A model generated the notes under the pieces. That model saw only the letters and a program-made list of their open reading frames with translations, searched no databases and was not told where the DNA came from. 300 nt of DNA, taken from assembly GCF_003334385.1 (NCBI RefSeq), contig NZ_QOWN01000211.1. One strand, 5' to 3'. Source of the DNA: Escherichia coli (GTDB taxonomy: Bacteria; Pseudomonadota; Gammaproteobacteria; Enterobacterales; Enterobacteriaceae). How positions within the stretch are numbered: position 1 is the stretch's first letter; every line of letters begins with the position of its first letter. The position numbers and the translations under genes are program-made. Shown one piece after another: positions 1 to 300 of the stretch.

Positions 1-300
1 GCCACTGCCATTGAAGCCGGTGATGAACGTCGCGCCCGCGCAAAATTTCACTGGCAATTCCTGGAACATTATCCGGCTGCTCAGGACTGCGCTTATAAAT
101 TTCTTGTCTGCGAGGATAAACCCGGTATACCCCGCCCTGCCCTAGATTCCTGGGATGCTGAATATATGCAGGAAAACCGCTGGGATGAGGCGTCTGCTTC
201 CTTTGTCCCGGTTGAGACTGAATCAGATCCGATGAACGTCACTTTTGACAAGCTGGCCCCTGAAGTACAGAACGCTGTCATGGTTAAGTTCGACACATGT
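1..300 (+). CDS. Partial CDS (internal fragment, both ends outside the window) encoding an acidic hypothetical protein of unknown family; at least 100 codons
   Basis: Seen in sequence: frame 1 has no stop codon across 100 codons, whereas frame 2 hits TAG at 142-144 and frame 3 hits TGA at 10-12. Arg codons are exclusively CGT/CGC (28-30, 31-33, 37-39, 133-135, 178-180), with no AGA/AGG/CGA/CGG. Leu is mostly CTG, Glu mostly GAA, Gly is GGT. Amino-acid composition is protein-like, with 3 Trp, 3 Cys and a mix of hydrophobic and charged residues. No in-window start: the internal ATGs at 166, 232 and 280 lack a well-placed Shine-Dalgarno. Product identity was not determined. Confidence 0.78.

Follow-up and report, generated by a model that had tools for sequence, protein, structure and literature searches.

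The 300-nt stretch analysed here (the window) is 100% identical to sequence in many E. coli chromosomes. In strain NCTC86 it corresponds to positions 6001-6300 of locus L001 and falls within a CDS annotated on the plus strand at 5929-8421 (WP_021533631.1). The window starts 72 nt, that is 24 codons, into this CDS, and its frame +1 is the frame of the CDS. The CDS starts with an ATG that precedes the window by 72 nt and has a GAGGT Shine-Dalgarno sequence 8 nt before it. Among 5,426 complete genomes of E. coli, 3,885 contain a match to the window (6,710 places in all, with a maximum of six copies per genome), and every match listed is covered by a CDS that bears the name 'exonuclease' or '3'-5' exonuclease'. 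Plasmid records account for fifteen of these places (for example NZ_AP040233.1, 92126-92425, a 94.5-kb record in which the match is annotated '3'-5' exonuclease'); the records concerned may represent phage-plasmids or contigs that were misassigned. The plus-strand CDS is annotated in all the records inspected (~80, E. coli genomes and phages), and in the loci inspected neither RefSeq nor GenBank ever annotates an antisense CDS.

The gene is carried by a lambdoid prophage that adjoins ompW. Its neighbours in L001, all on the plus strand, include an HTH repressor-like gene (cI-like), ydfA, ydfB and ydfC and, further on, Rha, dicB and a DUF1482 gene (ydfD-like), followed by the exonuclease gene itself and then by xis and int. 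Beyond int comes ompW (8486-9842 and 9888-10526 of L001 for xis, int and ompW). The gene sits in the early-left (dicB-type) block of co-directional genes, and its 830-aa product would be translated from the early-left transcript of the phage once repression is lifted. The cultured phages Evi, mEp460_ev081, Tritos, HannyBb and PhiR42_1 have the gene at the same position, as do the PPompW prophages of EHEC. The ompW site is that of the PPompW prophage family, and in EHEC records Stx2a phages are inserted into PPompW prophages. The gene's own family is PHROG 2082, with the CP-933P 'exodeoxyribonuclease' (ExoO-type), present in EHEC prophages, Evi, mEp460_ev081, Tritos, HannyBb and PPompW, which has the same neighbours, 91-99% nucleotide identity and no material difference from it. 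As a member of this annotated family of prophage exonucleases the gene is ordinary, and there is nothing new in the window.

A well-known relative is YdfE of the cryptic prophage Qin in E. coli K-12, which is also encoded after dicB-ydfD on the same strand and is 94.7% identical in nucleotides over the window. Whereas the gene described here has 830 codons, K-12 ydfE (L007 2929-3696) is a pseudogene that retains the first 255 codons and is cut by IS2, and the former is the intact form of K-12 YdfE. In K-12 the polycistronic dicBF unit consists of ydfABC-dicF-dicB-ydfDE, on the same strand as here, and Northern blots did not reveal a transcript reaching ydfE (PMC10448788). Other damaged copies were seen. 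The gene of L018 (1501-3966) is broken up into five fragments as called (326, 190, 89, 75 and 76 aa), PF16473 being found in the 75-aa and 76-aa ones, and in PPompW_14040 (L014 301-1172) there is an annotated frameshift from a 4-bp deletion.

Table 1 Features of the window and of the gene that contains it, in window coordinates.
Feature	Coordinates	Strand	Evidence
Whole exonuclease gene; stop 2,121 nt beyond the window	-71..2421	+	
Internal segment of the exonuclease CDS, codons 25-124 of 830	1..300	+	Annotated CDS, translation, codon model, PHROG 2082
aa 25-95, larger part of the putative alpha/beta domain YdfE_N (PF27430)	1..213	+	AlphaFold2 model, Pfam hits of homologs
aa 96-124, linker and first helix (aa 111-121) of the putative helical domain YdfE_C (PF27432, ~aa 105-206)	214..300	+	AlphaFold2 model
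Non-coding shadow ORF, 67 aa from GTG	93..296	-	Low CAI, chance length, no families, lost starts, stops

Frame +1 contains no stop in any of the 100 codons of the window. The sequence-only reading had remarked that this frame is open from end to end, and extension of the flanks, which it had proposed, placed it within an ORF of 830 codons complete with ATG, Shine-Dalgarno sequence and stop. The mechanical ORF list of the window holds three ORFs; the shadow ORF is the longest of them and the only one listed on the minus strand. By its rule this list leaves out ORFs that run past an end of the source, and frame +1 is absent because it crosses both ends of the window, so the remark that the list omits the real gene was right. 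The case has some value for quality control, since the ORF list of a 300-nt window that leaves out the frames crossing both ends leads to a gene on the wrong strand. On the other hand, 5.6% of shuffled 300-nt windows had a fully open frame among their six. A fully open frame, though mildly unusual, is not rare at this length, and the genomic context was therefore needed to decide the strand.

Coding potential was scored with a codon model based on 14,886 codons, taken from 40 core genes annotated in the same genome, and expressed as log-odds versus base composition. Considering amino-acid and codon usage together, frame +1 scored +22.7 bits and the other five frames -27.8, -55.9, -61.4, -71.2 and -125.2 bits, with the value of -71.2 belonging to the frame of the minus ORF. 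The codon adaptation index (CAI) of the plus frame was 0.651 in the window and 0.659 in the whole gene, within the range of the core genes (0.574-0.827, median 0.691), and the bias in synonymous choice of the window amounted to 0.004 bits per codon versus a core median of 0.207. The codon bias of the plus frame is ordinary for a prophage gene and not 'strong', as it had been described, but the codon model still singles out frame +1. The CAI of the minus ORF (0.473) practically coincides with the median for the wobble-aligned antisense frame of real core genes (0.477). Both measures had been suggested as a check, and both favour frame +1 over the minus ORF.

The minus ORF is a textbook shadow ORF. 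Seen in its context, its frame remains open up to window position ~479, with a stop-free run of 132 codons and a possible product of 128 aa from a TTG, and the 67-aa ORF is the lower part of this antisense run. The third codon positions of the run coincide with those of the sense gene: base 294 is in third position both in the minus codon 294-296 and in the plus codon 292-294, as had been pointed out. In this arrangement stops in the minus frame arise only where a plus codon ending in T or C precedes Tyr (TAY) or one ending in T precedes His or Gln (CAN), so long open antisense runs are to be expected. The product is indeed of low complexity, with 15 Ser among 67 residues (22.4%, rightly described before as roughly a quarter) and 32.8% Ser plus Thr, a composition that mirrors the richness of the sense protein in Ala, Glu, Asp and Val. 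Neither the 67-aa nor the 128-aa minus product had a match in NCBIfam, PHROGs or PADLOC.

The length of the minus ORF is also within what chance predicts. When the protein of the window was re-encoded with the codon usage of the gene, a stop-free stretch of 68 codons or more appeared in the frame of the minus ORF with P=0.64, and 96% of the trials had such a stretch in one or more of the five alternative frames. Along the whole gene, 2,000 synonymous shuffles gave an expectation of 3.4 runs of this length or longer for the minus-ORF frame, with three observed, and a run of at least 132 codons in this frame was obtained in 34% of the shuffles. The codon-aligned antisense frame had a mean of 4.1 runs of at least 68 codons per shuffle versus 3.4 in the wobble-aligned one; the geometry had been called 'classic', which is correct for the alignment of the wobble positions and only loosely right as a label, the codon-aligned frame giving slightly more long runs. 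The minus ORF shares with the shadow ORFs of bacterial genes its location inside a longer sense gene, a non-native codon usage, a low-complexity product and a chance-level length, and we found no difference from them. Other ORFs in alternative frames of the same gene are found at L001 6437-6910 (plus strand, 157 aa, frame +2), 7098-7604 (minus strand, 168 aa) and 7424-7822 (minus strand, 132 aa). Most of the long alternative-frame ORFs of the gene were within the ranges of the synonymous shuffles or at their edge; a 132-codon run in the third antisense frame was the longest in only 4% of the shuffles.

Comparison of homologous copies was used to establish which strand is constrained. The 14 copies at 91-100% nucleotide identity have no indels, and both the plus and the antisense frames are open in all of them. 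The candidate antisense starts are less stable, with the GTG changed to GTA in two of the 14 and the TTG changed to TTA in six. Among the substitutions in homologs, 33 of 51 fall on the third position of plus codons and the same 33 of 51 on the third position of minus codons, and most leave the amino acid unchanged in either frame, as the two frames share their wobble positions. The position of a substitution alone cannot separate the frames for this reason, and we used instead the classes of substitutions that do distinguish between them, together with diverged homologs. Over the full antisense span, 12 substitutions were synonymous in the plus frame and nonsynonymous in the minus frame versus three of the reverse class (expected share of the first class 0.38, binomial p=0.002); the corresponding counts in the window alone were three and none. 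The ratio of nonsynonymous to synonymous changes in the plus frame was ~0.2 of the neutral expectation. The plus gene is under purifying selection.

Since all the close copies (at least 91% nucleotide identity) are open in antisense and hence uninformative in this regard, more diverged DNA was compared. Four copies from E. coli and E. albertii (L016, L017, L019 and L020) are 76-80% identical in nucleotides over the positions covered, L020 covering only 210 bases of the window (its identity becomes 0.52 if counted per 300 window bases). The plus frame is intact in all four, with length differences that are always whole codons (1-codon indels), and the three copies that span the whole window have 72-75% amino acid identity in this frame. 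The antisense frame has in all four a stop 17 codons below the right end of the window, which leaves an ORF of 51 codons, and L016 and L020 have also lost the GTG start (antisense Val to Ala). At the protein level, 132 homologs of the N-terminal 260 aa of the plus product were found in a set of 5.8 billion proteins, and 102 relatives, down to ~21% identity, in a library clustered at 50% identity. The plus protein is conserved to about 20-25% amino acid identity across Enterobacterales and beyond.

All these data indicate that the window is almost certainly frame-1 coding sequence of the plus strand, belonging to the 830-aa 'exonuclease' of a lambdoid prophage, and that the minus ORF is a by-product of it. 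The strand interpretation of the sequence-only reading is supported, including its view of the minus ORF as a shadow, with a length predicted by chance and no conservation; neither a closure of frame 1 just outside the window nor homology or expression favouring only the minus product, which it had named as contrary evidence, was found. It is very unlikely that both strands code, with the antisense ORF (67 up to 128 aa) as a young and lineage-restricted overlapping gene. The openness of the antisense frame in 14 of 14 copies at 91-100% identity would agree with such a gene, as would a weak and partial Shine-Dalgarno-like GGTGA 11 nt upstream of the GTG and the longest run of the minus-ORF frame, 171 codons located elsewhere in the gene and in the upper 10% of the shuffles. 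However, openness is what chance predicts in this frame (the P value of 0.64 given above), the codon usage is that expected of a shadow frame, with some -71 bits in the codon model, both candidate starts are lost in some close copies and an internal stop interrupts the frame in the four diverged ones. Furthermore, the frame-distinguishing substitutions favour constraint on the plus strand only, the antisense product has neither a family nor an annotation in the loci inspected, and a consensus scan of L001 5600-6800 found no promoter-like site on either strand. A gene of recent birth in the antisense frame (up to 128 codons), translated in lysogeny while the sense operon is repressed, deserves equally little credence.

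The opposite possibility, that the 67-aa minus ORF is the sole gene and the plus frame is open by chance, would be compatible with the window taken alone, considering the frequency of fully open frames among shuffled windows. It has a practically negligible probability once the surroundings are included, as the plus frame is open for 830 codons and has hundreds of homologs, recognised domains and conservation down to the distant identities mentioned above; the annotated CDS of 830 codons, the match to PHROG 2082 and the diverged copies refute it. Somewhat less remote, but still improbable, is that the plus ORF is real but silent in the source genome, a cryptic-prophage relic undergoing neutral decay. 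Damaged copies are frequent (the K-12 ydfE interrupted by IS2, the frameshifted PPompW_14040 and the five fragments of L018) and many database entries are partial. Against decay, the copy that matches the window exactly has its 830 aa intact, the nonsynonymous to synonymous ratio is far below neutrality and the gene is intact in cultured phages. A plus-strand gene maintained by selection, with a non-coding ORF opposite to it, is the reading that we retain.

The 830-aa protein is a mosaic, composed of a YdfE_N/YdfE_C module, a RecE-like centre and a C-terminal DEDDh 3'-5' exonuclease domain. The PHROG 2082 'exonuclease' profile covers it end to end (protein 1-830 versus profile 1-823 of 823, E=0, 1861.8 bits), and the homology check that had been proposed is in this way decided in favour of the plus strand. 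The 100-aa peptide of the window by itself matched nothing in NCBIfam or in the local Pfam-A, the latter because the local copy is without PF27430 and PF27432 and not because the window is non-coding. Precomputed matches to both families are available for the relatives P0001-P0004 (97-98% identical over aa 1-260), P0053 (72%) and P0062 (67%), and the N-terminal ~260 aa, including the window, very likely belong to the recently defined YdfE_N/YdfE_C families (PF27430/PF27432) as judged from this similarity. An AlphaFold2 model of aa 1-260, built with a 30-sequence alignment of diverse relatives, reached a mean pLDDT of 90.3 and predicts an alpha/beta domain at ~aa 1-95, with a boundary taken from the secondary structure of the model, and a helical domain at ~aa 105-206; the assignment of the two Pfam families to these residues is derived from fragments that carry only one of them. 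The part of the first domain encoded in the window (aa 25-95) is modelled as a strand (24-30), two helices (33-47 and 49-53), a strand (56-62), a helix (77-82) and two further strands (83-86 and 91-94). In the linker region the block of aa 91-100 has a lower pLDDT of 79. Outside the family, structural neighbours were not informative for either of the N-terminal domains, and a sequence search of the PDB with aa 1-647 gave no match even at E<=10.

In the C-terminal part, Pfam-A identifies aa 649-820 as an Rv2179c-like 3'-5' exoribonuclease (PF16473, positions 2-177 of 177, i-E=3.4e-67), with an additional weak match to RNase_T, and the DEDDh model of PADLOC also matches the 830-aa protein (E=1.7e-5). 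The 'exodeoxyribonuclease' of PDB 8KEL matches this domain with E=6e-8; a literature search on this structure returned nothing relevant. The acidic and His residues D653, E655, D753, H803 and D808 are found in the segments MID653LE655TMG, GNGANFD753 and RH803NALDD808. Their DxE, D and Hx4D motifs are the three Exo motifs of the DEDDh superfamily. The protein resembles in this region the Rv2179c-like and DnaQ-type DEDDh exonucleases, in the PF16473 match as well as in the three motifs, and the domain would degrade the 3' ends of nucleic acids. In contrast, the window encodes an unrelated N-terminal module, the DEDDh domain being located 1.9 kb downstream.

The centre of the protein is related to RecE of the Rac prophage. 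Residues 262-632 align by BLASTP with RecE 278-591 (E=8e-60), with ~85% identity over the last ~150 residues, which include CTACGQTGGGNCPDCG and a CxxC...CxxC motif with its Cys at 558-573. Both proteins share this central non-catalytic region and a large size and, to judge by the neighbouring genes, both would be encoded in a lambdoid-prophage early gene block. The differences are found at the two ends: neither the N-terminus of RecE nor its C-terminal 5'-3' nuclease domain aligns with the 830-aa protein, which has the DEDDh 3'-5' exonuclease domain in the position of the latter. The NCBIfam model for RecE (NF007259) gives 269.5 bits versus a curated cut-off of 1269, and only aa 245-632 match. 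In L001 no recT-like gene is adjacent to the exonuclease gene, where the next genes are xis and int. An identity with RecE/exonuclease VIII was ruled out by the NF007259 cut-off, the domain content and the lack of a recT neighbour. Several phage records name the protein 'exonuclease VIII', a label for which the cut-off of NCBIfam gives no support.

Distant relatives of the N-terminal module (21-53% identity) have a different conserved C-terminus, with the sequence ...GEAQKKSLTDAxKKALSxLGFSADVWLG... (P0124, P0128, P0130, P0134, P0149, P0162, P0180, P0183 and P0188). This alternative C-terminus has a weak Pfam match to Rad52_Rad22 (E=0.078), and the proteins that carry it may be fusions of the module to a single-strand annealing protein, as far as such similarity can indicate. 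A fusion of this kind would suggest that the YdfE-type module is common to phage recombination proteins. The module encoded in the window would be a non-catalytic accessory or targeting unit, a reusable one because the same module heads proteins with different C-termini, and it could be a domain for partner binding or targeting that several phage recombination or nuclease proteins reuse. In the literature we found no experimental study of the function of the YdfE module or of the whole 830-aa protein.

As for other elements at the locus, no Rfam family matched in L001 5000-9000 at E<=1, so a structured RNA does not account for the region, and a terminator scan gave two terminator-like matches, both at chance level. 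The search for repeats detected nothing beyond one exact 10-nt direct repeat, GATGAACGTC, with two copies 209 nt apart at window positions 22-31 and 231-240. Relative to the sense gene the copies are read in two different frames, one encoding DER and the other a part of PMNV, and this repeat is probably due to chance.
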